Below, in pieces: positions 5,485 to 43,226 of a DNA stretch of 43,226 nt. Source of the DNA: a virus (taxonomy: Duplodnaviria > Caudoviricetes); IMG/VR virus record IMGVR_UViG_3300005611_000061, positions 1 to 43,226 of that record; one strand, given 5' to 3'. Below the pieces are notes generated by a model. It was not told the origin of the DNA. It was given only the letters and a program-made list of their open reading frames with translations, and made no database searches. Made by a program: the position numbers and the translations under genes. How positions within the stretch are numbered: position 1 is the first letter of the stretch; each line of letters opens with the position of its first letter.

Positions 5485-6296
5485 TGCCTAATGCAAGCAA
5501 AGCGGGAGTGCCGCCTGAAGTTATCGCAGAATGGAAAGCTGACTTTAAAAAAAAGCGAGAAAAAGCAGGCGGATCAAAACTTCCGTCTGGTGCTGCACAG
5601 TATACCTACAATGGTGTAACTTATACGGCTAAAAAATCTGGCAGTGGAATTGGTTTTCCAGAGGCTGCATATGAAGCTCGAGTTGAAGGACAACGTTCGA
5701 GAAAAGGTGAGCAACAAAAAATTAGGTTAAGTGAAGCTGAGCAATTATTGCAGCAATATAGGTATGAAGATGCTCAATTGTTGTCTGAACATTTGGGCCA
5801 ACGTATTGAAGTAGAGCATGGTATACCTATTGCTAAAGGTGGTTTTTCTAACGACCCTAATAATTTAGGACTTGCTACCAGTGAAACTAACCTTGCTAAA
5901 GGTAGTAAATTAGGTGGACCTGAATACAACCGTGCATTAGAAGAACATAAATACCTGTCTAACCTTGCTAATGAATTACGACAAGAACGTGGTGCTATTA
6001 AATTCCAACGTTCAGCCGTTACTGGCATGGCTGCGGCAGGTATTGCTGCTCTTGGTCCACTCGGTACTGCGGTTAGCGCAGCTGAAACAGCTGGACGCAA
6101 ACAGATTGCTGATGAAACCGGTAATCTAATTGACCGGGCTCAACAATACATTTCTGGTGCGTCATTAGCAGCGGATGCTGCATCTTACATACCACCGTTA
6201 ACAGTTCCTGCAACTGTTGTTTCTACTGGTCTTGATGCAGTCAACGTTGGCATTGACAGTACACGAGGCTTTATTAACCTATTTACTAGACGATGA
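5484..6296 (+). CDS. HNH-motif protein with an Ala/Gly-rich hydrophobic C-terminal region
   Basis: EVEHGIPIAKGGFSNDPNNLGLATSETNLAKG is an HNH core without the zinc cysteines. Confidence 0.65.
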   Translation: MPNASKAGVPPEVIAEWKADFKKKREKAGGSKLPSGAAQYTYNGVTYTAKKSGSGIGFPEAAYEARVEGQRSRKGEQQKIRLSEAEQLLQQYRYEDAQLLSEHLGQRIEVEHGIPIAKGGFSNDPNNLGLATSETNLAKGSKLGGPEYNRALEEHKYLSNLANELRQERGAIKFQRSAVTGMAAAGIAALGPLGTAVSAAETAGRKQIADETGNLIDRAQQYISGASLAADAASYIPPLTVPATVVSTGLDAVNVGIDSTRGFINLFTRR

Positions 6297-8023
6297 CTGA
6301 CGTTGTAACCGCCCTACAAGACGACTTTAAACTGTTTCTGCAAGCATTGTGGGGACAACTGGATTTACCAGAACCTACCCGTGCCCAATATGCCATCGCA
6401 GACTATCTACAAAATGGTCCTAAGCGACTCCAGATTCAAGCCTTCCGTGGTGTCGGTAAGTCATGGATTACTGGAGCGTTTGTTCTTTGGACTCTATTTA
6501 AAAATCCAGAAAAGAAAATCATGATCATATCGGCGTCAAAAGAACGCGCCGATAACATGAGTATTTTCCTACAAAAACTAATCATTGAAACACCATGGTT
6601 GACTCATTTGAGGCCGAAGAGCGACGACGCCAGATGGAGTCGGATCTCTTTCGACGTAAACTGCTCTCCCCACCAAGCGCCATCAGTGAAATCCGTAGGG
6701 ATTACTGGCCAGTTGACTGGAAGCCGCGCAGACCTTATGATTCTGGACGACATTGAAGTCCCTGGTAACTCAATGACAGAGTTTATGCGGGAAAAACTCC
6801 TGCAACTTTGTACTGAAGCGGAGTCTATCCTTACACCCAAGGATGACTCCCGCATTATGTATCTTGGCACACCTCAGACCACATTTACGATCTACCGTAA
6901 GCTTGCAGAACGCAACTACAGACCGTTTGTGTGGCCTGCACGCGTCCCACGCAGCCTCAGTAACTACGAAGGTCTTATAGCTCCACAGCTACAGGAAGAC
7001 ATCGATATGGGTGCTGAGGCGTGGGATGTTACTGACCCTGACCGGTTTGATGACAATGATCTTATCGAACGTGAAGCGGCTATGGGGCGTAGCAACTTTA
7101 TGCTACAATTCATGCTTGACACGTCCCTTAGCGACGCTGACAAGTTCCCGCTTAAAATGCAAGACCTGGTGGTTTCCTCTGTTAACCCCAGTACTGCTCC
7201 TGATTCCGTCATCTGGTGCAGCGATCCCAAGAATGTCATTCGGGACGCTCCCACTGTCGGTTTACCTGGAGATTATTTCTACAGTCCAATGCAGCTCCAA
7301 GGAGAGTGGCTCCCTTACGCCGAGACAATCTGCTCAGTTGATCCATCGGGTAGAGGCTCAGATGAGACAGCAGCAGCTTATATCTCCCAACGTAATGGTT
7401 TCTTGTACTTGCATGAAATGCGAGCTTATCGAGATGGATACTCAGACACGACGCTTTTGGACATTCTAAGAGGTTGTAAAAAATACAATGTAACCAAATT
7501 GGTTATAGAAACAAACTTTGGGGACGGAATCGTTGCCGAATTGTTTAAAAAACACCTCCAACAAACTAAACAGGCTATTGGCGTTGAAGAAGTCCGAGCA
7601 ACCTTACGTAAAGAACAAAGAATCATTGATGCTCTTGAGCCCATTCTTAATCAGCATCGGCTTATTATCGACCGCTCTGTTATTGATTGGGATTACACCT
7701 CCAACAGAGATGAAGCTCCCGAGAAACGTCTTATGTACATGTTGTTCTACCAAATGAGTAGAATGTGCATGGAAAAAGGTGCGGTTAAACACGACGACAG
7801 GATTGACTGCCTAGCTCAAGGTGTCAAATACTTTACAGATGCCATGGGTATATCTGCCCAAGAAGCAGTTAATCAACGCAAACGTGATGACTGGAACGAC
7901 CTCCTTAAGTCTACAATAGAAGACCCACAAGGTAGTGCTAATCACCTTGTATTTGGTATGAATAAAGAACAACGAGAGAAAGCTAGAGGTAACTATAAAA
8001 ACGGTGTCCCCACCTGGATTTAA
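6293..8023 (+). CDS. terL: Terminase large subunit (T7 gp19-like)
   Basis: Walker A AFRGVGKS, Walker B ILDDIE, nuclease motifs VDPSGRG and HDDRIDCL. Confidence 0.97.
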   Translation: MTDVVTALQDDFKLFLQALWGQLDLPEPTRAQYAIADYLQNGPKRLQIQAFRGVGKSWITGAFVLWTLFKNPEKKIMIISASKERADNMSIFLQKLIIETPWLTHLRPKSDDARWSRISFDVNCSPHQAPSVKSVGITGQLTGSRADLMILDDIEVPGNSMTEFMREKLLQLCTEAESILTPKDDSRIMYLGTPQTTFTIYRKLAERNYRPFVWPARVPRSLSNYEGLIAPQLQEDIDMGAEAWDVTDPDRFDDNDLIEREAAMGRSNFMLQFMLDTSLSDADKFPLKMQDLVVSSVNPSTAPDSVIWCSDPKNVIRDAPTVGLPGDYFYSPMQLQGEWLPYAETICSVDPSGRGSDETAAAYISQRNGFLYLHEMRAYRDGYSDTTLLDILRGCKKYNVTKLVIETNFGDGIVAELFKKHLQQTKQAIGVEEVRATLRKEQRIIDALEPILNQHRLIIDRSVIDWDYTSNRDEAPEKRLMYMLFYQMSRMCMEKGAVKHDDRIDCLAQGVKYFTDAMGISAQEAVNQRKRDDWNDLLKSTIEDPQGSANHLVFGMNKEQREKARGNYKNGVPTWI

Positions 8024-8024
8024 C

Positions 8025-8050
8025 CAGCTCCCCGCCTTATACAGGGAGAA
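8025..8050 (+). promoter_or_regulatory. Candidate phage RNAP promoter, copy 1
   Basis: CAGCTCCCCGCCTTATACAGGGAGAA is 25/26 identical to 12245-12270, and its 3' end resembles T7 TATAGGGAGA. Confidence 0.5.
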
Positions 8051-8806: not shown

Positions 8807-9022
8807 ATGCTTACATTTTACAATTATGTCACAGCATTCTTTAGTGTTGTGGTTGTAAACTGCGCTCAACCCGCTAATTGGCAGTATTGTCTACCCGTGC
8901 ACCAATGGTTACCGCCATATGTACAGGATGCACGGGATTTTATTGGGAATGAACCGTATTACACCGAGAAAGAATACCTGTTAAAAATTGACAAAAATTT
9001 GTCTACCCATATAGCGTGGTAG
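8807..9022 (+). CDS. Small hypothetical membrane protein
   Basis: ATG 1 nt after the thyX stop; MLTFYNYVTAFFSVVVVNCAQPANWQYCLPVHQW. Confidence 0.6.
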   Translation: MLTFYNYVTAFFSVVVVNCAQPANWQYCLPVHQWLPPYVQDARDFIGNEPYYTEKEYLLKIDKNLSTHIAW

Positions 9023-9301
9023 CATGGACGGTTTTCCCCCCGGCACCCCCAGTTTTGCCCAGTTTTGAGCAGTAATACCTACGGTATTAAACTGTGTTTT
9101 TGCTGGGCTAAACCGCGTGCGCGATAGGTTTTACCGCGCTCAGCCGGGCGAAACTGACTACCGCGCCCATGTTACACGCGTTAATATCGCGCGATCTGTC
9201 GGCGACCTTAACCTACGGTTATGAGTCAGCAATGCAATGATAAGATTCGGTGATGTCCTTTGGTATGACTGGGGTTTGGTGGTGTAATGTGGAGCTTGGT
9301 C

Positions 9302-9346
9302 AACTGTCCACCGTGATTTGGGGCTGATTGGGGCTATAGTCAAAGG
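9302..9346 (+). promoter_or_regulatory. Candidate host sigma70-type early promoter
   Basis: -10-like TATAGT at 9335-9340, preceded by AACTGTCCAC (9302-9311) and a GATT(T)GGGGCT duplication. There is no clean -35. Confidence 0.45.
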
Positions 9347-9450
9347 GAGATCTGATTTGATAGTTGAGATACTCGAACTCTCCCTGAAAGGGTGAGGAGA
9401 GTTCTCGATCTTTCAACCATCAGATCTCTACCCTCAGCACCTCGACAACT
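9347..9450 (+). promoter_or_regulatory. Long leader hairpin followed by a boxA-like sequence
   Basis: Nested pairings GAGATCTGAT/ATCAGATCTC, GTTGA/TCAAC and GAACTCTCC/GGAGAGTTC, then GCACCTCGACAACT at 9437-9450. Confidence 0.5.
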
Positions 9451-9622
9451 TGCGACTGCCGACTGCGGCGACCGTGCCCGGCGATTGGGTCACACCTTCG
9501 GTGTGGGAGACATGCTCCGCAGGCTAACAGGCAGGCTACACACACATGTGTAACATATAACCCGCGCGTGTATACACACATACATGCGCCCGCGGATCCA
9601 CACGCGTAGTATGCTCATGGAC

Positions 9623-9689
9623 ACGTACACGGTGCACCGGCGCCCTGCCCGTTCGAGTCGGGCTGTATGTATTGGGTCACATGGACCCA
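9623..9689 (+). ncRNA. Minimal tRNA-like element 1 plus 3' hairpin
   Basis: 7-bp stem ACGTACA/TGTATGT stacked on T-arm GCCCG-TTCGAGT-CGGGC, then TGGGTC/GACCCA. Confidence 0.55.
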
Positions 9690-9712
9690 CCAATCACACT
9701 CATCATTTGCTC

Positions 9713-9949
9713 ATGTACACACAGTTCACCGCACGCCGTACCTCCGACGCTTGCGACTTCATCCGTGTTAACCTGTTCTCAGGGACTGCTGAGGTATCCT
9801 TCCGCAGCGGTAGCATGTACCGGTACACCAACGTGTCCCGCCGTGCTATCCTCAATCTCATGTACAACCCCAACATGAGCCTAGGGTTCTGGGCTAACCA
9901 CAACTGCGTGCAGTCTGACCGTACCAAGTACAGTCTCGCTGCTGCCTGA
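9713..9949 (+). CDS. Early protein, KTSC-like domain
   Basis: AEVSFRSGSMYRYTNVS...SLGFWANHN resembles the KTSC pattern; internal ATG 9713 of the ORF at 9584. Confidence 0.65.
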   Translation: MYTQFTARRTSDACDFIRVNLFSGTAEVSFRSGSMYRYTNVSRRAILNLMYNPNMSLGFWANHNCVQSDRTKYSLAAA

Positions 9950-10008
9950 TCACCGCGTGATGCCGGGGGATCGAATCCCCTGGTCAGGCGTTGGCACCTT
10001 GCGTGCCA
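9944..10008 (+). ncRNA. Minimal tRNA-like element 2 plus 3' hairpin
   Basis: GCCTGATC/GGTCAGGC stem stacked on GGGGG-ATCGAAT-CCCCT, then TGGCAC/GTGCCA. Confidence 0.55.
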
Positions 10009-10034
10009 TACACTACACACACATGGACTCACAC

Positions 10035-10364
10035 ATGACCGTTGCACTGCCCGTCACCCACATCATCCTGGGCGAGGAGTTCGATACTGACGAACTCAGG
10101 GACATCGCAGAACATGGCGCCAACACTGGTGTTCATGGCTTCACGTACTCATCAGACTTGCATGACATGTTCGACAAGTACGAAGAACAAATCATGGACG
10201 ATCTCGATGAGTGGTGTGATGACAACTTCGGACAATCTGCAGGCTCATACATTGCCGAGCAGCTAACCTTTGATGACAAATCATGGACGCTGCAGCAATT
10301 CAAAGAATACGCTTGCTGGATGTATCTAGAGATGCGTGCCTGGTTCATCACAGGCGGTTACTGA
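10035..10364 (+). CDS. Acidic early protein, possible DNA mimic (Ocr-like position and charge)
   Basis: ~109 aa, strongly Asp/Glu-rich, second early gene; alternative ATG at 10023. Confidence 0.6.
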   Translation: MTVALPVTHIILGEEFDTDELRDIAEHGANTGVHGFTYSSDLHDMFDKYEEQIMDDLDEWCDDNFGQSAGSYIAEQLTFDDKSWTLQQFKEYACWMYLEMRAWFITGGY

Positions 10365-10370
10365 TCTCAT

Positions 10371-10396
10371 GGACCCTGCTTCGGCGGGGTTCTTTT
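10371..10396 (+). terminator. Intrinsic terminator in the early region
   Basis: GGACCCTGC-TTCG-GCGGGGTTC-TTTT. Confidence 0.7.
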
Positions 10397-10437
10397 GTCA
10401 CACTCATCATTCTCCGTCCGTCATGGACGCACCAACT

Positions 10438-10572
10438 ATGAGAATCACACTGATCTTTTTATTCCTGGTGGTGGCAGCCAACCTTGGGCTGTCACTAGCT
10501 GACTGGATGCAAGCCCAGCAAGATAAGCGCATGGACGCCATGTGCCAAGCAAACCCTACACTCTGCAAATGA
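10438..10572 (+). CDS. Small early membrane protein (44 aa)
   Basis: MRITLIFLFLVVAANLGLSLA..., with an ATGA overlap to the next ORF. Confidence 0.6.
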   Translation: MRITLIFLFLVVAANLGLSLADWMQAQQDKRMDAMCQANPTLCK

Positions 10573-10688
10573 TCTGGTCTGAATCTAACATCATCTTTGC
10601 CATCATCGGCATGGTCGGGCTGTTCTCAACAGCTATCATCTGGCAACGTGCAAACCGTATCACCTCAAAGTATTATGGCAAACGCTAA
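10569..10688 (+). CDS. Small early membrane protein (39 aa); not in the ORF track
   Basis: MIWSESNIIFAIIGMVGLFSTAIIWQRANRITSKYYGKR: a single TM helix with a basic tail, coupled to its neighbours. Confidence 0.65.
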   Translation: MIWSESNIIFAIIGMVGLFSTAIIWQRANRITSKYYGKR

Positions 10689-10860
10689 ATCTTTGGATGA
10701 CGATTGGTTCATCAGGAACGCAATCGAGTGTTGGCTGCACTACTTTCCAGATCACAAATGGACACCTATCTATCAGGAACTAGCCAAACGTGACGCATAC
10801 ACACCAAAGCCTAAACCTCGACCAGCTCGCAGGCGCAAGCCTAAGTCAACCACTACGTGA
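10675..10860 (+). CDS. Small early hypothetical protein
   Basis: ATG 10675; MANAKSLDDDWFIRNAIECWLHYF..., basic tail. Confidence 0.6.
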   Translation: MANAKSLDDDWFIRNAIECWLHYFPDHKWTPIYQELAKRDAYTPKPKPRPARRRKPKSTTT

Positions 10861-10999
10861 GTACATTGTCACTCTATCTAGCGACGAGCCTACGTACATA
10901 CTCGCCGCCAATGCTGAGGAAGCTGCATGGCATGCCTTGGAATTGTCCGAAGATAGAGATGCTGTACTTATTGACGTGAGGTTGACTGATGAATGGTAA
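10790..10999 (+). CDS. Small early hypothetical protein; start uncertain
   Basis: Fills the gap; EYIVTLSS...YILAANAEEAAWHALELS. Confidence 0.5.
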   Translation: MTHTHQSLNLDQLAGASLSQPLREYIVTLSSDEPTYILAANAEEAAWHALELSEDRDAVLIDVRLTDEW

Positions 11000-11303
11000 G
11001 AAACCGTACTTTCCAAGTAACTGGAAGATGTACAAGGACGCACCAGATGATGCGTTTCAACAACATACATTTGAAGAGGTCATGGAATGGAAGGTTGCTG
11101 GCTGGGAATTACCAGCTGACATAGCTTGCATCATCCGTGCTACCAATCTCAAAACACGTAAAACAAAAGAGTTCATCTACAAACGCCAGCATGCTGCTGA
11201 GCAGAAAGTGATGGAACTCATGGACGCTAAAACACACGAGTTTACCGTGTGCACTCACGACTCAATCCACTATGTTGGACCTGAACCACCAATCGATGAC
11301 TGA
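10989..11303 (+). CDS. Early hypothetical protein
   Basis: 104-aa ORF tiling the early operon. Confidence 0.7.
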   Translation: MNGKKPYFPSNWKMYKDAPDDAFQQHTFEEVMEWKVAGWELPADIACIIRATNLKTRKTKEFIYKRQHAAEQKVMELMDAKTHEFTVCTHDSIHYVGPEPPIDD

Positions 11304-11433
11304 TTCTACCTACCAATTCCACGTTGACACACTCATCAACGAACTGGAAGAACATCCACACCAAGCAGAAGTACTTGCGCTTATGCAAGAACAGATGTTT
11401 GATGACATGAACACACTTTACCTTGAGGAGTGA
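11296..11433 (+). CDS. Small acidic early protein (45 aa); not in the ORF track
   Basis: MTDSTYQFHVDTLINELEEHPHQAEVLALMQEQMFDDMNTLYLEE; the stop abuts the RNAP start. Confidence 0.65.
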   Translation: MTDSTYQFHVDTLINELEEHPHQAEVLALMQEQMFDDMNTLYLEE

Positions 11434-13773
11434 TTGGCAACACCAGCAGAGATTGACAGGCAAGTAAAACTTGAGCGTGAACAAATAGCTCAAGGACTCA
11501 AGCAACTACGTGACAACACAGACAAGCTAGAGAGCAAGGACTACGCATCAGCCAGTGTGTATGGTGTAGCATCTATTCAACAACTCATCCCACTTGTGGT
11601 TGAGCGCATTGAGCAGACAGCTGCACGTGCAAAGCGTGGCTTTGTGGGTCAACACTTCAAAGAGATCAAAGCGTTGCTCAAGGACTTAGAGCCTGATGCA
11701 GCCGCGGCCATCACGTCAAAGGTTATCTTTGATAAAGTGTTCAGCTCCAAGCCACGTAGTGGACAGCTACAGAATGTGACTGATTCAATCGGTCAAGCTG
11801 TAGAGAACGAGTGCATGATGCGCTATTATGAGCAGCATGTGCCTGGACTTCTTCATACAATCAAAGAAAACTACTTCCACAAGTCCATAGGCACTCACCA
11901 AAAGGTCAAGGTCATCACCACCCTGATGAACCGCTACGACGTGCCTCACTGGCAGTGCTGGGGTATTGCTAACCGTGTCAAGCTGGGCGGTTGGCTGCTA
12001 GATTGTGTGTGCGAGGCATCACAATGGTTCATGCGTGAGACACGTAGGGAGGGACGCAAGACCTACAACTACGTGGTGCCGACACCTGAGTTCATTGCTA
12101 TCAAGGATCAGGTGATTGCCAGTGCTGAGATGTTCAGCCCACTGGCATGGCCAATGCTCATTGAACCTAATGACTGGACCAACGAAACACCAGGTGGGTA
12201 CTTGCTTAACGAGGTCATGCGAGGGCATGACATGGTTAGGCGTTCAGCACCCCGCCTTATACAGGGAGAAACACCAATCAAGTTTCTGAACACGATTCAG
12301 AAGGTTGCATACACCCTCAATCCATTCATTGTAGATGTCGCTGAGACACTACAAGAACGTGGTATTGAGGTAGGTAAATTTATCCCTGTTGTTGAGATAC
12401 CTCTACCACCTAAGCCAATAGATATTGCAGAGAACAAAGAATCTCGCAAGGACTACAGACGAAGGGCTGCTGAGGTATGTAACATCAACGCACAAGCGTT
12501 CATGAAGTCGTGTCGTACACGTATGACAATGAACGCAGTCAAGATATTCAAACAACATGCCAAGTTCTTTATACCTTGGTCGTTTGATTATCGTGGTCGT
12601 GCTTACCCTATCCCTGCATTCTTGACACCCCAAGATACAGACTTTGGTAAGTCACTACTTAAGTTTCATGTACAGTCGTACATGACACCTGATGCTGAAG
12701 GCTGGTTAGCCTTTCAGGTCGCTACTACGTACGGCTTGGATAAAGCTACTATGCTTGAGCGACTCGCATGGACACGTGAACACATCACACTCATCAGCAG
12801 GGTCGCAACAGACCCAGTAGGCAACCTATCAGAATGGGAGGTCGCAGATGAACCATGGCAGTTTCTGGCTGCATGTGATGAGTATTACCATTGTGTCATT
12901 AATTGTGATCGTCATTTTACAAGTCTGCCTGTAGCTACAGATGCTACTTGCAGTGGTCTTCAAATTCTTGCAGGACTTGCACGCGATGCCTCAACCGCTA
13001 AACTTGTCAATGTTTTACCATCAGACAAGCCTCAGGATGCGTACAAAGTGGTGGCTGAACAAGCTACCCCACACGTACCCGACTCAATCAAACCCTACAT
13101 GGACAGAAAAACTGTCAAACGTGTAGTGATGACCGTGCCTTACAACGCAAAACCTTATTCCAACCGTGGCTACATCCGTGAAGCACTCAAAGAAAAAGGT
13201 GTTGAGGTTGATAAGGATGATCTGACTCTTACTGTCAAGGCTGTACGTGATGCCATGGACATCATTGTCCCTGGTCCCATGGCAGTCATGACATGGATTG
13301 AGTTGGAGGTCGGTAAGGCGATTGACCGTGGTTTAACTGAGTTAACATGGACTACACCATCAGGGTTTGTCGTCACTCAACGACTGATGAAACCTGTGGT
13401 CAAAGACATTGAGCTACAGTTACTTGGCAGGTGTCACATCAAAGTAGCAACAGATGAAAGCGACAAGGTTGATAAGTCTCATCATAAGAACGCAACTGCG
13501 CCCAATCTGATCCATTCTTTAGATGCTAGCCTCCTCCACTTATCTGCACTCCGCTTCGACGCTCCGATTTCCTTCATACACGACTCGGTTTTATGTCGTG
13601 CTACTGACATGGGTGTTCTTTCATCCATTGTTCGTGAAACATACATGCACCTATTTGCGGAGCATGACTTTTTAACTGACTTTGCCCAACAAATTGGGGC
13701 AGAGACTGACCCACCGATGTGTGATACACTAGAACCATCATCGGTTATCGATTCCACCTATTTTTTCTGCTAA
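11434..13773 (+). CDS. Single-subunit T7-like RNA polymerase
   Basis: DYRGRAY, DATCSGLQ, RKTVKRVVMTVPY, APNLIHSLDAS, IHDS and C-terminal YFFC; TTG start. Confidence 0.98.
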   Translation: MATPAEIDRQVKLEREQIAQGLKQLRDNTDKLESKDYASASVYGVASIQQLIPLVVERIEQTAARAKRGFVGQHFKEIKALLKDLEPDAAAAITSKVIFDKVFSSKPRSGQLQNVTDSIGQAVENECMMRYYEQHVPGLLHTIKENYFHKSIGTHQKVKVITTLMNRYDVPHWQCWGIANRVKLGGWLLDCVCEASQWFMRETRREGRKTYNYVVPTPEFIAIKDQVIASAEMFSPLAWPMLIEPNDWTNETPGGYLLNEVMRGHDMVRRSAPRLIQGETPIKFLNTIQKVAYTLNPFIVDVAETLQERGIEVGKFIPVVEIPLPPKPIDIAENKESRKDYRRRAAEVCNINAQAFMKSCRTRMTMNAVKIFKQHAKFFIPWSFDYRGRAYPIPAFLTPQDTDFGKSLLKFHVQSYMTPDAEGWLAFQVATTYGLDKATMLERLAWTREHITLISRVATDPVGNLSEWEVADEPWQFLAACDEYYHCVINCDRHFTSLPVATDATCSGLQILAGLARDASTAKLVNVLPSDKPQDAYKVVAEQATPHVPDSIKPYMDRKTVKRVVMTVPYNAKPYSNRGYIREALKEKGVEVDKDDLTLTVKAVRDAMDIIVPGPMAVMTWIELEVGKAIDRGLTELTWTTPSGFVVTQRLMKPVVKDIELQLLGRCHIKVATDESDKVDKSHHKNATAPNLIHSLDASLLHLSALRFDAPISFIHDSVLCRATDMGVLSSIVRETYMHLFAEHDFLTDFAQQIGAETDPPMCDTLEPSSVIDSTYFFC
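12245..12270 (+). promoter_or_regulatory. Candidate phage RNAP promoter, copy 2, inside the RNAP gene
   Basis: CAGCACCCCGCCTTATACAGGGAGAA, a near-identical copy of 8025-8050. Confidence 0.45.
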
Positions 13774-14340
13774 ATGGCACGTACCATCATCAAAACTGAA
13801 CAGCCCGTGGTCCTTGAAGGCTACCAAGCTGTACTGCAACCCGGTAAATTCGGCTACAAGCTCATGGCTGTGGTCGGTCAAGACATCGTGGACCAGCTGG
13901 AAGCTGACCGCGTTGAGTCCATCAAGTGGGCTGAATCAAAACTGAAGAATCCGAAGCGTTCTGTGCTGAAGCCTGAGCCCTGGGAAGAAGTTTCTGAGGG
14001 TAAGTACACTGTTAAGTTCACATGGAATGACGAAACCAAGCCTCCCGTTGTTGACACTGAGGGAACTCTTATTGAAGACACCGATACCCCTCTATATGGC
14101 GGCGCTAAAGTTAAGCTTGCTTTCTTTCAAAAGCCTTACATCCTCAAGGACGGTGTAACCTACGGCACTAGCCTGAAGCTGAAGGCTGTGCAAGTTATCT
14201 CGCTCGCATCCTCTGCTGGTGTTGACACTGGCGACATGGACGAAGCTGATGTAGCTGAGCTGTTCGGCAAGACCGAAGGTTTCAAGGTTGGCGAGCCCAA
14301 CATTTCCAACGATGCAGGTGAACCCGATGACGACTTCTGA
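13774..14340 (+). CDS. ssb: Single-stranded DNA-binding protein (gp2.5-like)
   Basis: GTSLKLKAVQVI, acidic tail ending DDDF, position after RNAP. Confidence 0.9.
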   Translation: MARTIIKTEQPVVLEGYQAVLQPGKFGYKLMAVVGQDIVDQLEADRVESIKWAESKLKNPKRSVLKPEPWEEVSEGKYTVKFTWNDETKPPVVDTEGTLIEDTDTPLYGGAKVKLAFFQKPYILKDGVTYGTSLKLKAVQVISLASSAGVDTGDMDEADVAELFGKTEGFKVGEPNISNDAGEPDDDF

Positions 14341-14521
14341 TTTCCAATACACCGTATCTCGTGATGAGATCACTGGTGTGTACAAGGGCACGCTGGACAT
14401 CCAGCTGCCTCCGATCTGCGTGACTCGTTACAAAGCAGATAAAAACGATTTCAAGTACGAGATGTCTCGTGCAGTTACTGAAGTTGTTGAAGCCATCATC
14501 GAAAAACACATGGATGACTGA
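14327..14521 (+). CDS. Small hypothetical protein
   Basis: ATG 14327; the stop overlaps the endonuclease ATG. Confidence 0.65.
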   Translation: MTTSDFQYTVSRDEITGVYKGTLDIQLPPICVTRYKADKNDFKYEMSRAVTEVVEAIIEKHMDD

Positions 14522-14874
14522 TGGCTTTTCGATCCAGACTCGAAGAAAAGGTTGCTGACCTTCTCGTTGAGCTGGGTGTCAAGTACGAGTACGAATGTTC
14601 TAAAGTCCCATATACCATATCTCACATGTACTGCCCTGACTTCGTTCTTCCGAACGGTGTTATACTAGAGTGCAAAGGGTATTGGGACAGTGCTGACCGG
14701 AAGAAAATCAAATCAGTCAAGGAACAGAATCCTGACCTTGACCTACGCATGGTCTTCCAGGCACCCTACAATACAATTTCAAAGAAAAGTAAAACTACAT
14801 ATGCCAAATGGTGTGACAAACACAACATCCTTTGGTGCTCTTTCTCTAACATACCTATCAAGTGGCTCCTATGA
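14521..14874 (+). CDS. Endonuclease I / Holliday junction resolvase (gp3-like)
   Basis: FRSRLEEKVA, YCPDFVLPNGVILECKGY. Confidence 0.95.
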   Translation: MAFRSRLEEKVADLLVELGVKYEYECSKVPYTISHMYCPDFVLPNGVILECKGYWDSADRKKIKSVKEQNPDLDLRMVFQAPYNTISKKSKTTYAKWCDKHNILWCSFSNIPIKWLL

Positions 14875-16454
14875 GCGACTCTGAATTTGTACGGCACATG
14901 CCGTGCGACAACTGCGGATCGTCTGATGCAAATAGCTTGTACTCAGACGGTCACGCGTTTTGTTTCAGATGCTTTACGCACACAAGTGGTAACGACACCA
15001 CCCATCACACTCATCAAATGCGAGATGTCAACCTACAAGGCTCAGCTGGACGGCTGCAGAAGCGACGAATCTCAGAAAAAACCTGTGAACTGTTCAAAGC
15101 CTACAAGGACGGAGAACAGCTACGCTTCCATTATTACAACAGCGCTGGAACACTTCTCGGCGCAAAAATAAAAACTAAAGATAAGGACTTCCGTTGTGAA
15201 GGCGAGGTTAAAACTCTGTACGGAATGCAAAACTTCCGTCACAAAACCACAAAGAAAGAACAAAAGCTAGTCATCGTCGAAGGCGAGATGGATGCTTTGT
15301 CTGTGTGGGAGGCACAACCAAACTGGGATGTAGTATCTATCCCGAACGGTGCACCTGCTGCAAAGAAAGCACTTCAACACAACTACGAATGGATCAATTA
15401 TTACGACAAGATTGTTCTGTTCTTCGACAACGATGAAGCCGGTCAGAAGGCTGCCAACGAGGCTGCCGGTGTCCTACCACCTGGCAAGGTTTTCATCGGT
15501 GCTCTAGAGGACTACAAGGACGCCTCAGAGGCTCTACAAGCTGGAGACAACGAGGCTATCCGTGCTGTATGTAATTATGAGCACGTACAATACAAACCAG
15601 ACGGCATTGTCGATGCAAAATCCTTGCTCGACATCATCACCACACCGTCACCACCATCAGATCATGAGTACCCCTTTCAAGGACTGCAAAGTAAACTACA
15701 CGGGATCCGGTATGGAGAGCTTGTTACGATTACTGCTGGAAGCGGGATCGGAAAGAGCTCCTTTTGTCGTGAACTCGCAACTCACCTGCTATGTAAAGGA
15801 GAACGGGTCGGTTACCTGGCTCTTGAAGAATCCAACCGTCGTACAGCTCTCGGATTGATGTCAGCAAAGGTTGGTAAATCCCTACACTTGGGTGAGCACA
15901 GCCGAGCTGAACTGACTGAAGCTTTTGACAACACGATTGCCAATTGGAACTTACATTTGTTTGATGGTTTCGGGAGTTATGATCCTGATCACATCTACGA
16001 ACGTATTGAGTACATGGCATCGGGTCTAGAAACACGTGTTGTATTCCTCGATCACCTCAGCATCCTGCTTAGCGGGCTTGACGGTGATGAACGTAGGATG
16101 ATCGACACCACCATGACCAAGCTGCGATCACTTGTTGAACGCACTGGTATTGCATTGTTCCTTGTTTCCCACCTACGGAGAACTACATCAGATGTCAATC
16201 ATGAAGAGGGTGCTAGAGTTACACTCGGACAGCTCAGGGGATCTGCTTCAATTGCTCAGCTCAGCGACGCATGTATTGCGCTCGAACGAGATCAACAGAA
16301 CGGATCTGAACGAAGCCGTACGACTGTTAGAATCCTTAAGAATCGATATTCTGGCGAGGTTGGTATCGCTGGAGAACTCGACTACGACCTGAACACTTGT
16401 AAGTTTATTGAACATGAAGCTCAACCCGATTTCAACCCGGCTACCGATTTCTAA
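14862..16454 (+). CDS. Primase-helicase (gp4-like)
   Basis: Zinc finger CDNCGSSD...CFRC, TOPRIM EGEMD/FDNDEAG, Walker A GSGIGKS, LRGSASIAQLSD, KNRYSG. The likely start is ATG 14871. Confidence 0.97.
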   Translation: MAPMSDSEFVRHMPCDNCGSSDANSLYSDGHAFCFRCFTHTSGNDTTHHTHQMRDVNLQGSAGRLQKRRISEKTCELFKAYKDGEQLRFHYYNSAGTLLGAKIKTKDKDFRCEGEVKTLYGMQNFRHKTTKKEQKLVIVEGEMDALSVWEAQPNWDVVSIPNGAPAAKKALQHNYEWINYYDKIVLFFDNDEAGQKAANEAAGVLPPGKVFIGALEDYKDASEALQAGDNEAIRAVCNYEHVQYKPDGIVDAKSLLDIITTPSPPSDHEYPFQGLQSKLHGIRYGELVTITAGSGIGKSSFCRELATHLLCKGERVGYLALEESNRRTALGLMSAKVGKSLHLGEHSRAELTEAFDNTIANWNLHLFDGFGSYDPDHIYERIEYMASGLETRVVFLDHLSILLSGLDGDERRMIDTTMTKLRSLVERTGIALFLVSHLRRTTSDVNHEEGARVTLGQLRGSASIAQLSDACIALERDQQNGSERSRTTVRILKNRYSGEVGIAGELDYDLNTCKFIEHEAQPDFNPATDF

Positions 16455-16584
16455 TACCGACTTAGATTTGCGGCGCCCAACACCGCCCACCCCTGAAATG
16501 GTGGAGCGTGCTAAATTTGTAGACAAAACTTACCGCTGGAAAAATGCTGGTATTCGACCTGGAAAGCAACGGTCTTCTCAATGA
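16414..16584 (+). CDS. Possible small protein bridging helicase and polymerase (RRPTPPTPEMVERAKFVDKTYRW)
   Basis: 56-aa ORF read by hand; it spans the 16455-16543 gap. Confidence 0.4.
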   Translation: MKLNPISTRLPISNTDLDLRRPTPPTPEMVERAKFVDKTYRWKNAGIRPGKQRSSQ

Positions 16585-17059
16585 TGTTACCCGCATTCAC
16601 TGTCTGGTCATCTACGACTCAGAGACTGACAAAACTCTCGTATACAATGACGAGGGTGATACTGAGCCCATTACTCGCGGCGTTCAACGATTGGAGGACG
16701 CTGAAGTTATTGCCGGTCACAACATCATCGGGTATGACTTACCCTGCTTACAAAAAATCTATCCGTGGTTCCAACCGACCGCCCTGGTTATTGATACCCT
16801 TCTTCTCTCGCGGTTGTATCACACGGACATGAGAGACCTAGACATGAAGCACAAGTGGGAGAACATGCCACTGCAGCTTTACGGTCGCCACAGTCTCGAA
16901 GCGTACGGTCACAGGCTGTCTGAATACAAGGGCAGCTTTGGTAAAGACGCTGACTGGTCTGAATGGTCTCAAGAAATGCAGGACTACTGCATACAAGACG
17001 TTCAAGTTACTAAAAAATTATGCGATCACTTCCACCCCTACCTGAGTGGGTCGCGCTAG
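16544..17059 (+). CDS. DNA polymerase A, 3'-5' exonuclease part
   Basis: ExoI FDLESNG, ExoII GHNIIGYD, ExoIII YCIQDV. Confidence 0.93.
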   Translation: MLVFDLESNGLLNDVTRIHCLVIYDSETDKTLVYNDEGDTEPITRGVQRLEDAEVIAGHNIIGYDLPCLQKIYPWFQPTALVIDTLLLSRLYHTDMRDLDMKHKWENMPLQLYGRHSLEAYGHRLSEYKGSFGKDADWSEWSQEMQDYCIQDVQVTKKLCDHFHPYLSGSR

Positions 17060-18294
17060 AACATCAGGTTGCAAACATTCTTACGCAACAGGAACTTCAT
17101 GGATGGTATTTTGACGAACGCTCTGCATGGCAACTTGCATCGACTCTCAGAACCGACCTTGAAAAAACTTATCAACTACTACGCGACAGGCATCCTTTCG
17201 TTGCCGGATCATTATTTACTCCTAAACGAAATAATCGGACCCAAGGCTATGTCGAAGGCGCTCCATTCACACGCTTAAAAGATCTCAATCCCACATCACG
17301 AGACCATATATCATGGATCCTGCAAACATATCATGGCTGGAAGCCGACGGAGCTGACTCCTACTGGGAAGCCGATCATCGACGAAGTTATCTTGAAAGAG
17401 GCTGCCTCCGCTGGGATTTCGATTGCCGAGGACTTTCTGAAGTGTCTCGATATTACGAAGAAATTGGGGATGATCTCGGAAGGCACGAACGCATGGCTGA
17501 AGCTGTGTACGAATGCTAACCGAGTACACCATCACTGTTCCGTCGCAACTAACACACACCGATGTGCACACCGTAACCCTAACCTTGCCCAAGTACCCAG
17601 TGACTCAAACTTCAGACAACTCTTCCAGGCTAGTCCGGGTCAGCTTCTTGTTGGCGCTGATCTCGCTGGGATCGAGCTTCGTATGCTTGCTCATTACCTC
17701 GCACGTTATGATGCGGGTCGCTACGCTGACATCCTCCTTAACGGGGACATTCACCAAGTCAATGCCGACAAAGTTGGTATCTCCAGAAGGGCTGTCAAAA
17801 CCGTTACCTACGCCTTCCTCTATGGTGCCGGTGATGCCAAAATTGGATTGAGTTATGACTCCTCTCTCAGCCCAGCTAGAGCTAAATCCAAAGGTAAAGA
17901 AATACGTACAGCTTTTGTGGAAGCAATTGACGGGCTTGCCCAGCTTCTTGAGGCTATCAAAACAGCGTCTGAGAAGGGCTATGTTCGATCAATAGACACA
18001 CGAAAGATCAAAGTTGACAGTCCGCACAAAGCATTGAATTATCTGCTACAATCAGGTGCAGGTATCGTTGCAAAGCGGTGGATGGTCATCAATCACACAA
18101 ACACACAAGAGTTGTGCTGCTCACAGCTCGCATTTATACATGACGAATTACAATTCGAGTGCGACCCCGCCCACGCAGACGCTCTATCAGCATCCCTGGT
18201 ACAAAGCGCTGAAGCGGCTGGAGAACACTATTCACTACGCCTCCCAATCAGTGCAGAAGCAAAACAAGGGAGTGACTGGTCGGAGGTCCATTGA
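17020..18294 (+). CDS. polA: DNA polymerase A, polymerase part
   Basis: PNLAQVP, motif A DLAGIELR, motif B KTVTYAFLYG, motif C IHDE; in the -1 frame relative to the exonuclease ORF. Confidence 0.95.
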   Translation: MRSLPPLPEWVALEHQVANILTQQELHGWYFDERSAWQLASTLRTDLEKTYQLLRDRHPFVAGSLFTPKRNNRTQGYVEGAPFTRLKDLNPTSRDHISWILQTYHGWKPTELTPTGKPIIDEVILKEAASAGISIAEDFLKCLDITKKLGMISEGTNAWLKLCTNANRVHHHCSVATNTHRCAHRNPNLAQVPSDSNFRQLFQASPGQLLVGADLAGIELRMLAHYLARYDAGRYADILLNGDIHQVNADKVGISRRAVKTVTYAFLYGAGDAKIGLSYDSSLSPARAKSKGKEIRTAFVEAIDGLAQLLEAIKTASEKGYVRSIDTRKIKVDSPHKALNYLLQSGAGIVAKRWMVINHTNTQELCCSQLAFIHDELQFECDPAHADALSASLVQSAEAAGEHYSLRLPISAEAKQGSDWSEVH

Positions 18295-18695: not shown

Positions 18696-19462
18696 AACTA
18701 CTAATTGACGCAGACTACATAGTTTACAAATCCTGCGCCGGTGCTGAAGATGAGATTGATTTTGGCGAGGATGTAATCCTTGTTATCAGCAAGTTCTCCG
18801 AAGCACTATCCAACGTACAGCGTGAGCTGTCAAAGATTAAAAACAACTTCATGTGGGACACACCAGAACTGGTGCTGTTTTTCAGTGACTCTAAAAATTT
18901 CAGGAAAAAAATTTACCCAGATTACAAGGGACATCGAAATAGAAAGAAGCCCTGTGGTTATCGCCGGGTAATTTCTACACTCAAACAGCAGTATGAAGTC
19001 ATCATCTTGCCTGAGCTTGAAGCTGATGACGCTATGGGTATCTATGCTACGGCTAACCCCGGTAACATCATTGTTTCACCAGACAAGGACATGCGACAGA
19101 TACCTGGCAAGTTGTACAACATGGATGAGGTTATGACCATCACACCTGAACAAGGTATGCAATGGCATCTCATTCAGACACTTGCAGGTGATCAAACTGA
19201 CGGATACAGTGGTGTCCCTGGCATCGGTGTTAAGCGTGCGGTCTCTCTGTTTGAAGAGGATGGTTACACGTGGGATACTGTTGTCAAAGCTTTTGCTTCC
19301 AAAAATCTTGACGAAGAGGTAGCCTTGACCAATGCACGACTCGCACGTATTCTTACACACGAAAATTATGACGCAGAACACCGAACCGTCATACCCTGGT
19401 GTCCCACCGATGCCAGTATTGGAGCTGACAATGGAGCAGAGTTTCAAGCTAAGACGGCTTGA
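18692..19462 (+). CDS. 5'-3' exonuclease (gp6-like)
   Basis: LIDADY, YKGHR, LEADDAMG, SPDKD, GDQTDGYSGVPGIG. Confidence 0.95.
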   Translation: MKLLIDADYIVYKSCAGAEDEIDFGEDVILVISKFSEALSNVQRELSKIKNNFMWDTPELVLFFSDSKNFRKKIYPDYKGHRNRKKPCGYRRVISTLKQQYEVIILPELEADDAMGIYATANPGNIIVSPDKDMRQIPGKLYNMDEVMTITPEQGMQWHLIQTLAGDQTDGYSGVPGIGVKRAVSLFEEDGYTWDTVVKAFASKNLDEEVALTNARLARILTHENYDAEHRTVIPWCPTDASIGADNGAEFQAKTA

Positions 19463-19607
19463 GGATCTGCTTCCAGCAGCTGACAAAGATGACATCATTA
19501 CATTATTTTTAGCCCTCCAACGGCAGAACTTCTGCCTTGGCAATACCGTATCAAACCTAGTTAAACAGTGGCCAACTCACCACCCCACTACACCCGAGGA
19601 ACCATAG
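19368..19607 (+). CDS. nblA: NblA-like phycobilisome degradation adaptor; start uncertain (ATGs at 19332, 19368, 19410)
   Basis: ELTMEQSFKLRRL...LFLALQRQNFCL...LVKQW matches the NblA pattern L(S/T)xEQxF...L..Q...W. It overlaps both neighbours. Confidence 0.75.
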   Translation: MTQNTEPSYPGVPPMPVLELTMEQSFKLRRLEDLLPAADKDDIITLFLALQRQNFCLGNTVSNLVKQWPTHHPTTPEEP

Positions 19608-27108: not shown

Positions 27109-27179
27109 TTCGTACGTTCATCCTTCGGGACGCATACTGCCTGACCATGGAACGGGGGTCAGGTTTACCTCAGTACGAA
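27109..27179 (+). ncRNA. Glutamine-II riboswitch (Downstream-peptide RNA motif)
   Basis: P1 CGTTC/GGAACG, P2 TCC-TTCG-GGA, pseudoknot CCTGACC/GGTCAGG; followed by a YRG peptide ORF. Confidence 0.85.
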
Positions 27180-40298: not shown

Positions 40299-43226
40299 AT
40301 GGCTACAACTGAAGTATTTTACAACGGTGACGGATCTGACGTCACCTTTACAATTCCATTTGAATATTTAGAGGAATCCGACGTCAAAGTTTCTGTCGGA
40401 GGCACCTTACAAACTCAAGACACTGATTACACGTTTTCAACTCTAACTGAGATTACGTTTACTACTGCACCTCCAACTGGTACAGATAATGTAAGGATTT
40501 TTAGAGATACGGACATCAACACCCTGCGGAACGAGTTTTTCGCAGGTTCTGCCATCCGTGCACAAGACCTAAACGATGACTTCCTGCAAACCCTTTACAC
40601 GGTGCAGGAGATTAGTAATTACACCTGGGATAACGAAACAAATACAATCCATAGTGACGAAACGTGGGTAAGCTCTGATACTCAGATTGCTACCACCGCT
40701 GCTATGGATCAGCGGTTCCAAGACGAAGCAACTGAAACTATTGAAAGTACAGAGACGTGGGTTAGCGATGATGATCGTGTACCCACTACACTTGCTTCTG
40801 ACAACCGAGTAGATAGTAAGATTGATACTGCTATTGAAGGGGACATCCTCATTGATAGTACCGGTCTTACTAAGTCTGCTGCTGGTGGTCAGGTAACCAT
40901 TGGCATTGGTGCTAACTCTGTTGACCTTGACCGTATCAAAAATGAAGATATTGTCACGTATGCTGAGCAGAATGCTGGGTCTCCTTCTTGGGATAGTGAT
41001 AGTCGCATCCCTACGACTTATGCTGCTGCTAAGCGATTTGACACCCTTGTGCAGATCGCTACACCCACAGGAACCGACTGGGAAGTAGGTAAGACGTGGC
41101 TGCAAAATGACGTAGACAAAACCCTTTCTATTTGGAACGGCAGTGCTTGGGTAGCTGTTGCTTCTGGTGGTGCCTTTACTGAGCTTACTAAGGTTATCTA
41201 CGTTGACTCTGTTAATGGTGATGACACCTTGGCTGGTCACCGTATTAGTAACCCTAAGCGTACCATTAAAGCAGCTATTGATGACATTAACGCTGATCCT
41301 GATGGTGACGGCAGTATTGTATTGGTTGCACCGGGTATTTACGGTGAGACGTTCCCAATCTCGATTCATAAAAATGATGTCGCTATTGTTGGTCAGTCCC
41401 TAAGAAACTGCATCGTTCACCCTGCTATCCCTGCTGCTGATCAGGCTGGATATAGCGTAGATGTGCCAGAGGCTAACGAACTGTCTACCATGTTCGAAGT
41501 CAATAGCGGTACATATATCTATGGCTTGACCTTGACTGGTATGAAGGCTAGCGGTACTCGTGGCGGTAACAGCCTTGATACTGACTCTACCTACGGTCTT
41601 CCTACTAACCAAGGTTGGAACTTTGCGTTCCGTTCTGGTGCAACAATTAAGAAGTCTCCGTACATCCAAAACTGTACTAACTTCTCTGATAGCCAGATCA
41701 ACAACGTAACCTTTATACCGCATACGCCTGGTGAAGGCGCTGCTGGTGACCTTGATTCTGCTCCGTCTGGTGGTGGTATTCTTATCGATGGTTCTACTGT
41801 TGATTCGTCTAGCCCACTGCGGTCGATGGTGTGTGATAGTTACACCCATACTGCACTTGATGGTCCTGGTATCTTTGTTACCAACAACGGTTACTGTCAG
41901 GCAACTAGCTCCTATTCATTCTTTAACCACTTCCATCTAAAGACAAAGAATGGTGGTCAAGCTAACCTCGCTGCTTCTACTACTGACTTTGGTAGTCATT
42001 CATTGATTGCTGACGGACGTTCTCCGTACGCTATCTTTACTGCTACTACAACTGTAACTGCAAGCGACGGTAGTGCTACGTTTACTATCGGTACACCAAC
42101 CGCACGTACTGCAACACCTCTGCCTTGGCATGGTAACGCAACACGTCCCCAGGACAACATGCTTGTGGACATCGGCGGTAACACCTACCCAATCCTTAGT
42201 GCTGTTGCTAATGGCGCTGGATGGGATGTAACAATCAGCCGTCCTGATCCTAATGACCGTAACAGTAACCTTGGTCTTGACGGTACTGTAAATAGCGGTT
42301 CTGCTGTCAGTTTCTTCCTTCGTTCAATGATCGCCTCTAGCGGTCACACGATGGAGTACGTTGGCAGTGGTACTGATTATACTGCACTGCCTGAGAACGG
42401 TGGTGTACCTGATGACACCAAACAACTTACCGAACTAAACAACGGTAAGATCTGGGCTGCTATTACGGATCACCGTGGTACGTTCAAGGTTGGTGATACG
42501 TTTGAAGTTAATCAGCAAACTGGTTTTGTTGACATTGATGCAGCAGCTAGTAATGCTGTAACTAAGACAGCACAGACTGGTTCTGCCATCATTCCTCTTG
42601 GTACAGACGCTCAACGTGACGGTTCACCTAATAATGGTTACTTCCGTTACAACACTACTCGTGATGAGTTTGAAGGTTATGTCGGTGGTGCCTGGAGCAA
42701 AATTGATGGTGTGATTGATGGTGATAAGGGCGACATTACTGTGTCTAGTAATGGCGGTACTTGGACTATCGATAACGACACAATCACTAACGCTAAAATG
42801 GCAGATGATGCCATTGGTATTGCTGAACTGTCGGCAACTGGTACACCGGGTTCTGGTAACTTCCTGCGTGGTGATAACACTTGGGCAGCAGCTTCTGCTG
42901 ATCTAGTTTCAGATACTACACCACAACTTGGTGGGATGTTGGATGTTAATGGTCAGTCTATCGGTGATGGCACACTTGAGCTTCTTAAGTTTTCCGAAAC
43001 AGCTTCTGCTGTTAACGAGCTGACGGTTACTAATGCTGCCACTGGTAACGGTCCAACACTTTCAGCTACTGGTGATGATACCAACGTTAATTTAGACCTG
43101 ACTGCTAAAGGCACTGGTCTTATCCAAGTAACTGAAAATGGGCTATCTAAAGTACCTATTGTCACTCAACACGACATTGGTACTGCTGCTAATGAGATCC
43201 CATTGAACCAGTATCTCGGTACTGCT
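40299..43226 (+). CDS. Tail fibre / tailspike (gp17-like), partial, runs off the window; not in the ORF track
   Basis: MATTEVFYNGDGSDVTFTIPFEYL...VRIFRDTD is a T7 fibre adaptor N-terminus. A beta-helix-type start (IYVDSVNGDD...TIKAAI...VAPGIYGE) follows. The frame was open at every spot check through the last base. Confidence 0.9.
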   Translation, partial: MATTEVFYNGDGSDVTFTIPFEYLEESDVKVSVGGTLQTQDTDYTFSTLTEITFTTAPPTGTDNVRIFRDTDINTLRNEFFAGSAIRAQDLNDDFLQTLYTVQEISNYTWDNETNTIHSDETWVSSDTQIATTAAMDQRFQDEATETIESTETWVSDDDRVPTTLASDNRVDSKIDTAIEGDILIDSTGLTKSAAGGQVTIGIGANSVDLDRIKNEDIVTYAEQNAGSPSWDSDSRIPTTYAAAKRFDTLVQIATPTGTDWEVGKTWLQNDVDKTLSIWNGSAWVAVASGGAFTELTKVIYVDSVNGDDTLAGHRISNPKRTIKAAIDDINADPDGDGSIVLVAPGIYGETFPISIHKNDVAIVGQSLRNCIVHPAIPAADQAGYSVDVPEANELSTMFEVNSGTYIYGLTLTGMKASGTRGGNSLDTDSTYGLPTNQGWNFAFRSGATIKKSPYIQNCTNFSDSQINNVTFIPHTPGEGAAGDLDSAPSGGGILIDGSTVDSSSPLRSMVCDSYTHTALDGPGIFVTNNGYCQATSSYSFFNHFHLKTKNGGQANLAASTTDFGSHSLIADGRSPYAIFTATTTVTASDGSATFTIGTPTARTATPLPWHGNATRPQDNMLVDIGGNTYPILSAVANGAGWDVTISRPDPNDRNSNLGLDGTVNSGSAVSFFLRSMIASSGHTMEYVGSGTDYTALPENGGVPDDTKQLTELNNGKIWAAITDHRGTFKVGDTFEVNQQTGFVDIDAAASNAVTKTAQTGSAIIPLGTDAQRDGSPNNGYFRYNTTRDEFEGYVGGAWSKIDGVIDGDKGDITVSSNGGTWTIDNDTITNAKMADDAIGIAELSATGTPGSGNFLRGDNTWAAASADLVSDTTPQLGGMLDVNGQSIGDGTLELLKFSETASAVNELTVTNAATGNGPTLSATGDDTNVNLDLTAKGTGLIQVTENGLSKVPIVTQHDIGTAANEIPLNQYLGTA

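Follow-up and report, generated by a model that had tools for sequence, protein, structure and literature searches.

A same-strand sequence word in the early region of clade-B T7-like cyanophages and its possible role as a tag on early mRNA

Why should a single heptamer recur on one strand in the early region of a phage genome? The question is raised by a 43,226-nucleotide stretch of DNA from a member of the Caudoviricetes (IMG/VR record IMGVR_UViG_3300005611_000061, positions 1 to 43,226; here, the window), in which an initial annotation had noticed a concentration of CATGGAC and proposed that it is a polar DNA signal acting during entry into the host, such as a Chi-like site. We find that the word is a real and selected motif of clade-B cyanopodoviruses, the true form of which is CA(A/T)GGAC, frequently followed by GCA (CAWGGAC(GCA)). 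It is apparently previously undescribed: the open literature yielded no description of it in such phages, subscription papers and supplements lying outside the scope of that search. The reading that we prefer, with a probability of about 40%, is that this coding-strand word may serve as a tag on early mRNA for shutoff by an RNA-binding protein. T7-like cyanophages of clade B abound in the sea, and their early-gene timing and host evasion are poorly known. Selection on the word that overrides even the choice of codons suggests an unrecognized regulatory or counterdefense layer across the clade.

The word in the window and its relatives

All 17 CATGGAC coordinates given by the initial annotation are correct, with every copy on the plus strand, none on the minus strand, and 15 within positions 9023 to 14241. 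The word as there defined describes these copies but overlooks nine of CAAGGAC (11033 to 15678). Apart from one copy near the DNA end (see below) and the two outlying CATGGAC copies at 3459 and 19806, the word occupies three consecutive regions, as follows.

9616..11225, plus strand: dense early cluster (CATGGAC at 9616, 9680, 10022, 10193, 10282, 10368, 10422, 10530, and 11219; CAAGGAC at 11033)
11434..13773, plus strand: copies in the T7-like RNA polymerase (RNAP) gene (CATGGAC at 12767, 13098, 13254, and 13346; CAAGGAC at 11491, 11535, 11679, and 12447)
13774..15684, plus strand: tail of the gradient, in the SSB and primase genes (CAAGGAC at 14145, 15104, 15515, and 15678; CATGGAC at 14235)

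The enrichment persists under both dinucleotide- and codon-preserving nulls, obtained by shuffling the window and its genes. Dinucleotide shuffles of the window contain on average 5.9 copies of CATGGAC on both strands (maximum, 13), compared with 17 in the real sequence, and between 9000 and 14300, the 15 copies compare with 0.44 expected under an order-2 Markov model, CATGGAC being the top enriched 7-mer of that region. In synonymous-codon shuffles (n = 1000) of the early, RNAP, and SSB genes, the 9 real copies of CATGGAC exceed a mean of 2.4 and a maximum of 7, and the 15 of CAWGGAC exceed a mean of 3.6 and a maximum of 10; CAAGGAC is enriched likewise (12 versus 3.3 expected, all genes). 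Positions where the protein sequence allows CATGGAC to be encoded realize it at 4/4 sites in early genes, 4/4 in the RNAP gene, 2/5 in middle genes (one being the SSB site), and only 1/17 in late genes, so that the early, RNAP, and SSB genes together realize 9 of 9. The absence of reverse copies is confirmed but lacks significance (0 versus 1.06 expected in genes; P = 0.34). Since such an absence is expected from coding alone, it is the clustering and the rate of realization, rather than the polarity, that carry the signal.

These results bear directly on the possibility that the word is a by-product of codon and amino acid use (C-ATG-GAC and C-AAG-GAC). Phage phiKMV shows a 19:0 strand polarity without early concentration, so that codon use alone can yield polarity; moreover, the frame in question accounts for 73 of 96 coding copies, and some RNAP sites fall on conserved residues. 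However, the codon nulls are rejected, 6 of the 15 copies lie outside gene models and are conserved, and the one-letter neighbors of the word show no enrichment, which together make this explanation highly improbable.

The comparison with relatives covered 80 RNAP loci and 33 long genomes (28 of clade B and 5 of clade A; as a scan with the Syn5 RNAP returned only 2 loci, clade A is represented by five isolates). As the reading of the initial annotation requires, relatives share the motif, which recurs across many clade-B genomes: early density is 0.2 to 4.8 copies/kb in the 28 clade-B genomes versus 0 to 0.7 in the five of clade A, a range of about 20-fold across clade-B phages and several-fold between phages of one host. 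The word is absent from T7 and HTVC019P, and no early cluster is found in clade A or in the T4-like phages Syn9 and S-PM2, whose hosts are shared with clade B. When unique contexts are pooled, (T/A)CA(A/T)GGAC-G-C-A emerges as the consensus; over 142 kb of early and 304 kb of far sequence, the counts are 182 and 33 for CAAGGAC, 100 and 16 for CATGGAC, and 109 and 15 for GGACGCA, with almost no reversed copies. Among nine close relatives, noncoding motif letters are kept at 143:4 versus a background of 4544:789. Copies in relatives switch between the CAT and CAA forms, and at site 11679, CAA/CAT/CAC-GGAC is kept although the encoded residue varies among K, M, and T.

In the RNAP gene, 6 to 9 sites are realized at ~2.5 to 6 kb from the end in the window, G154, and S-SBP1, 4 to 5 at 5 to 7 kb in S-TIP37, L386, and L007, and 0 at 5 to 8 kb in P-SSP2, S-CBP3, G165, and G161. 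Gene and distance are inseparable here, and we did not retain distance from the end as the sole cause. A scan of 2 of the 64 parts of the viral collection for comparable tandem patterns returned 14 of 121 loci with at least 7 co-oriented copies per 4 to 8 kb. These have 54 to 68% GC, with dispersed copies and without T7-cyanophage genes, and were read as codon background. The clade-A phage Syn5 (locus L164, 255 to 4374) has a same-strand repeat of its own, TCACCATCA, with 13 plus-strand and 0 minus-strand copies, 7 of them in the first 4.4 kb.

The initial annotation had also taken the DNA for that of a T7-like cyanophage and the motif region for its left, early end, and both views are borne out. 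Protein matches in PHROGs identify the window as a circularly permuted T7-like cyanophage of clade B, with an RNAP 84 to 85% identical to those of S-SBP1 and S-RIP2. Its genes run in the order terminase (6293 to 8023), thyX, small early genes, RNAP (11434 to 13773), replication and structural genes, and psbA. Alignment with three isolates with known ends (S-SBP1, P-SSP7, and S-TIP37) places the left terminus at ~9010, and one public contig ends at 9193, matching the end of the terminal repeat. We infer that position 9010 is the physical left end of the phage DNA; in T7, the left end is the first to enter the cell. The terminus displays the following features.

9010..9193, plus strand: direct terminal repeat, aligning with the start of S-SBP1 (180-bp direct terminal repeat); the ends of P-SSP7 and S-TIP37 are similar
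9023..9029, plus strand: outermost copy of CATGGAC, at 13 bp from the end; this place holds GGGACGCA, CAGGACGCA, or CAGGCCGCA in relatives
9194..9199, plus strand: ATCTGT, directly after the terminal repeat
9200..9599, plus strand: motif-free leader (0 copies in the window), probably the host-promoter region

The cluster falls in the left-end region but does not begin at the end itself: after the copy at 9023 in the terminal repeat, there is none until 9616. ATCTGT at 9194 resembles the T7 concatemer-junction pause signal; it is fully avoided in the late genes of 21 clade-B genomes (0 versus 89 expected). The leader also contains a long inverted repeat (9368 to 9415) conserved in S-SBP1 and S-TIP37. 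Elsewhere in the window, an identical 16-mer, CCGCCTTATACAGGGA, occurs after the terminase gene (8032 to 8047) and inside the RNAP gene (12252 to 12267) and is likely a phage promoter. The DNA polymerase is split over two overlapping frames (16544 to 17059 and 17020 to 18294), with the same annotation in P-SSP7 and S-TIP37; an nblA gene (19332 to 19607; Pfam E = 5e-6) overlaps the end of the exonuclease gene; and two minus-strand open reading frames (ORFs; 266 and 149 amino acids [aa]; 40569 to 41849) follow the internal virion gene and have no match in PHROGs.

A possible tag on early transcripts

The word starts in the leader of gene 1 and not at the DNA end, and it fades through the RNAP, SSB, and primase genes. 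Over the 400 bp that directly follow the terminal repeat, 25 motif-rich regions have 3 copies versus 33.8 expected, 22 of the 25 having none, and motif density then jumps within 100 nt upstream of gene 1, where the strict word is found at −29 to −40 in 24 of 64 distinct leaders. The corresponding part of the window is organized as follows.

9673..9689, plus strand: leader hairpin TGGGTC-ACATG-GACCCA, containing the 9680 copy, 33 nt upstream of the first gene
9695..9705, plus strand: second motif, CACACTCATCA; also at 10399, 11328, 12786, and 15006
9713..9949, plus strand: gene 1 (gene 9713), encoding a 78-aa basic protein of predicted KTSC fold; candidate reader
10035..10364, plus strand: acidic DUF7222 protein (23 D/E and 5 K/R in 109 aa)
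10371..10396, plus strand: intrinsic terminator, the 5′ arm of which overlaps the 10368 copy
10415..10429, plus strand: hairpin CGTCC-GTCAT-GGACG, containing the 10422 copy, 9 nt upstream of the ATG at 10438
10989..11303, plus strand: gene 10989, present in all 28 clade-B and 0/5 clade-A genomes; second candidate reader

Relatives have the leader hairpin at the same position and with the same fold, with compensatory changes: the stem is found with GCGTC/GACGC, GGGTC/GACCC, and GCGAC/GTCGC, as well as TCC/GGA -> ACC/GGT, wobble G-U pairs, and a bulge. Among the leader variants recovered with a looser pattern, 28/30 have a more stable fold than shuffled sequences (z < −1.5; median, −3.0), and 9 of 95 early coding copies have six pairs versus 2.5 expected. 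It is only at the hairpin that sequence separates a reading as RNA from a reading as the nontemplate DNA strand. Just upstream (9647 to 9663) is a separate hairpin with a GTTCGAGTC loop resembling a tRNA T arm, which is kept in many relatives. Rfam searches of the window, S-SBP1, and S-TIP37 recovered no family at the gathering score for the leader, the sole match being a glutamine-II riboswitch elsewhere, which in the window lies directly 3′ of psbA (27112 to 27164) and is also present in S-TIP37. The second same-strand motif differs by lineage, being CACACTCATCA in the window, TTCGGTACGAC (15 copies) in L072, TCGATACGAC (11 copies) in L080, and TTCACAGTC, ACATTCAC, and CACAATCG among L035, L027, and L036, and it often lies 5 to 15 nt upstream of the first motif or of a start codon. 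Its copy at 15006 to 15020 immediately precedes an in-frame methionine (Met50) that lies past the zinc-binding cysteines of the primase-helicase, and several relatives have the motif in the same place; this Met50 is likely an internal start like that of T7 gp4B.

In the late genes of 21 clade-B genomes, 58 sense copies of the word compare with 93 expected, versus 650 and 655, respectively, for antisense GTCCW; in clade-A late genes, the figures are 22 and 27. A null based on early-gene codon use had suggested strong late avoidance (2 versus 18.7 for gp16), which shrank to ~0.6 under class-matched nulls; only the latter were used. The early pileup and the slight late avoidance fit a tag for repression or decay, following the logic of the T4 proteins RegB and RegA. 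We therein envisage that a small RNA-binding protein would read the word on early mRNA, as RNA rather than as the nontemplate DNA strand, and that the bound transcripts would be marked for later shutoff; it is the mild late avoidance and the T4 analogy that suggest repression or decay as the effect. The reader may be phage encoded, with the product of gene 9713, the leader of which holds the structured copy, as the first candidate and that of gene 10989 as the second. The motif also provides an initial functional clue to two early genes that lack annotation.

The KTSC assignment of the gene 9713 product combines a Pfam match below the curated cutoff of 25 (score, 20.5; E = 4e-4) and KTSC matches of 48 of 97 homologs with a structure model (predicted local distance difference test score [pLDDT], 86) that resembles PDB entries 4RGI and 7X8C (template modeling score, 0.69 to 0.70; Foldseek E = 6.5e-4 for 4RGI); the modeled fold is that of KTSC. 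KTSC has been described as an RNA-binding domain (PMC7824862). Presence and absence were compared over 45 nonredundant complete early regions, taken from 88 with the end marker among 225 with gene 10989, and median density is 2.7 copies/kb in those with KTSC versus 0.7 in those without it. A PDB search with the model of the gene 10989 product (pLDDT, 75) returned nothing at E ≤ 0.001, and the Atlas leads of this model are under 0.9, none of them named; the homologs of the protein in the viral library come only from cyanophages.

Several observations weigh against the transcript tag. KTSC has also been described as DNA binding (PMC9503650). It is not necessary for a high density, as five regions with neither KTSC nor the ArdA-like gene discussed below have 0.7 to 4.8 copies/kb, nor is it sufficient, as P-SSP10 and L466 each have 0.3 copies/kb; moreover, it tracks the motif in only ~1/5 independent pairs. 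The KTSC protein thus fails both the presence/absence and the pair tests as the sole reader. Most copies of the word have no stem, with 0 of 55 RNAP copies reaching five pairs, and the copy in the terminal repeat lies outside the early mRNA. The late-gene avoidance is mild, unlike that of ATCTGT, and is missing from the window itself (4 versus 3.6 expected). The signal of conservation from synonymous C positions by themselves is marginal (P = 0.055), the pooled P values are too small because related genomes are not independent, and the model leaves the anticorrelation with the ArdA-like gene unexplained.

Alternative proposals: counterdefense, polymerase processivity, and DNA-level signals

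The strongest association that we found is a negative one. An acidic ArdA-like gene is present in 19 of the 45 early regions, all with ≤1.76 copies/kb, and in 0 of the 20 with at least 2.0 copies/kb, median density being 0.68 with the gene and 2.84 without it. This raises the possibility that the word is a cis-acting counterdefense or antisilencing element in transcribed early DNA, with CAWGGAC sites neutralizing or diverting a conserved host factor and lineages swapping this code for an ArdA-like mimic. If so, one picocyanobacterial host barrier would have two interchangeable answers, a DNA-mimic protein and a word scattered through the early genes. Four of five independent pairs are concordant and none is opposite, and phages of one host differ in density (on WH7803, 3.9 for S-SBP1 versus 0.9 for 7B11-B; on CB0101, 1.8 for S-CBP3 versus 0.4 for S-CBP1). 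Furthermore, the N terminus of some ArdA-like proteins is 52 to 57% identical to the corresponding part of AbrB-like host regulators, without the AbrB domain, and matches host proteins in 5/5 genomes, the three tested being PF14250 AbrB-like. However, the pair test gives P = 0.125 and could not reach significance, the assignment to ArdA is weak (Pfam E = 0.02, with no ArdA match among solved structures), and a match to the host N-terminal domain at E < 1e-3 is seen in few members (4/19). The window phage has an acidic gene of its own, the DUF7222 gene, which never co-occurs with the ArdA-like gene in the 45 regions. In loci that carry the ArdA-like gene but no integrase, the RNAP genes also keep an excess of copies (23 versus 7.0 expected, compared with 60 versus 18.4 in negative loci; the excess is smaller, 8 versus 5.0, in positive whole genomes), so that the link may reflect an early module inherited as a block. 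We regard the counterdefense reading, including the exchange of code for mimic, as rather unlikely. The proposal of the initial annotation that the word is a restriction or methylation decoy is itself weakened, since one word is common to Prochlorococcus and Synechococcus phages while phages of one host differ, though the ArdA-like anticorrelation lends a counterdefense role some probability; whereas type IIL and type III restriction sites have one fixed recognition sequence and would be avoided or co-oriented rather than enriched, the word is degenerate at position 3 and enriched several-fold.

Another alternative is an element, in the nontemplate DNA strand or in nascent RNA, that makes host RNAP more processive on early DNA by antipausing or antitermination; in T7, transcription by the host RNAP also pulls the genome in. 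Such an element would accord with a word that is limited to the host-transcribed region, begins in the first leader, and at 10368 forms the 5′ arm of a terminator. Yet a copy overlaps only 2 of 13 terminator-like sites, both in near relatives, and we accordingly dropped a general overlap with terminators; antiterminators, as far as is known, need one or two loading sites rather than dozens, and late avoidance is left unexplained. We consider it unlikely. That the word acts on the early transcript at all, which the tag and the processivity element have in common, is somewhat favored by the balance of the evidence. The polarity and the copy 13 bp from the DNA end would suit a polar site of the Chi type, read as GTCCWTG on the bottom strand and restraining a host RecBCD that enters from the left end, and marine Prochlorococcus and Synechococcus possess recBCD (PMC5101192). 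We searched for its expected trace in G152, a genome of the host family though not proven to be that of the host (60 tiles of 20 kb, i.e., 1.2 of 2.44 Mb); such genomes were reached by way of locus L141, as a psbA scan did not give marine Synechococcus directly. Neither GTCCATG (127 versus 128 expected) nor GTCCTTG (162 versus 152) is overrepresented. Both lean to the leading strand (72:55 and 106:56), but most of this skew disappears under a codon null (52 versus 57, z = −0.7; 82 versus 67, z = +1.9). A 10-mer follows the replichores of G152 at 13 of 14 places; five other single-contig genomes, with the origin taken to be at base 1, lack that pattern. Along with the nearly empty 400 bp after the repeat, the ~20-fold variation in density within clade B and the several-fold variation among phages of one host, and the lack of the word in clade-A and T4-like phages that share these hosts, this leaves a Chi-like or entry-end signal unsupported and, in our judgment, quite unlikely. 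Very unlikely as an account of the whole array is a packaging termination signal read by terminase at the end of right-to-left packaging. The letters of lambda cosQ are similar to the reverse strand of the word. Several phages have a copy at a fixed place, 13 to 17 bp from the left cut, and cosQ is a termination site of 7 bp (PMC4669245). However, this would account for one copy and not for ~24, the terminal copy is single, the most degenerate, and missing in some phages, and the adjoining leader is empty; that copy may have a separate packaging role.

Beside these readings, the ArdA-like family itself offers two observations. The analysis exposed a fusion of an AbrB-like N-terminal domain to an acidic ArdA-like domain (L026:4405-4965, L165:1127-1693, and L389), a possible antisilencer, and L605 (G045:C1:343955-344218), on a host-family chromosome, matches the ArdA-like domain as a stand-alone unit (E = 4e-9). 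An Atlas structure search with DUF7222 gave no match.

Relation to known systems

Same-strand heptamers at the left end are familiar from T7, where CCTAAAG short repeats number 11 copies in the first 2 kb. That array is tight, noncoding, and adjoins the terminal repeat; in contrast, CAWGGAC skips this zone and spans ~7 kb of genes. Like the Chi sites of RecBCD and AddAB, CAWGGAC is short, asymmetric, co-oriented, and within coding DNA, but unlike them, it shows no overrepresentation in the host, only a weak skew, avoidance of the first 400 bp, and a tie to phage lineage rather than host. CsrA/RsmA sites, with the consensus (A/U)CANGGANG(U/A), have nearly the same letters and likewise occur in many single-strand copies. 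This candidate was rejected, as CsrA (PF02599) exceeded the cutoff in 0 of 5 genomes (the phage and four of the host family) and the GGA hexaloop pairing is not seen: the closing pair is underrepresented (66/288 versus 93), and the GG is predicted to be paired rather than in the loop. A Shine-Dalgarno role was set aside for want of a start-codon peak at a spacing of 5 to 10 nt, with 147 of 225 copies falling within clustered ORFs, and a primase recognition site because there is no strand switch, with 0 copies of GTCCATG on the plus strand anywhere in the window. CATGGAC is also an instance of the type IIL site of DrdV (CATGNAC; bioRxiv 10.1101/2021.01.06.425610); we regard this as a coincidence, since DrdV does not recognize the CAAGGAC form, both strands contain CATG(A/C/T)AC (7 plus and 13 minus), and more sites would aid cleavage. 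Plasmid leading regions are described in PMC13478746 as showing codon adaptation and not motif enrichment.

The nearest parallel is with T4, in which the phage protein RegB, acting at GGAG sites, shuts off early mRNAs (PMC1702504), and RegA has operators on early mRNAs (PMC3014915). As in those systems, in which a phage protein reads them for switch-off, the cyanophage sites are short sense-strand words on early transcripts. The RegA sites differ in being AU rich, unstructured, and located at the start codon, whereas CAWGGAC lies mostly inside genes or 30 to 40 nt upstream. No homolog of RegA or RegB was found among 49 window proteins searched in PHROGs or 28 in Pfam. The proposal is directly testable, as S-TIP37 carries the motif (23 plus-strand copies) and a method for engineering T7-like cyanophages exists (PMC8776855). 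By the tests run, the word belongs to none of the RegA/RegB, CsrA, and Chi families, though it would work like the RegA and RegB sites.

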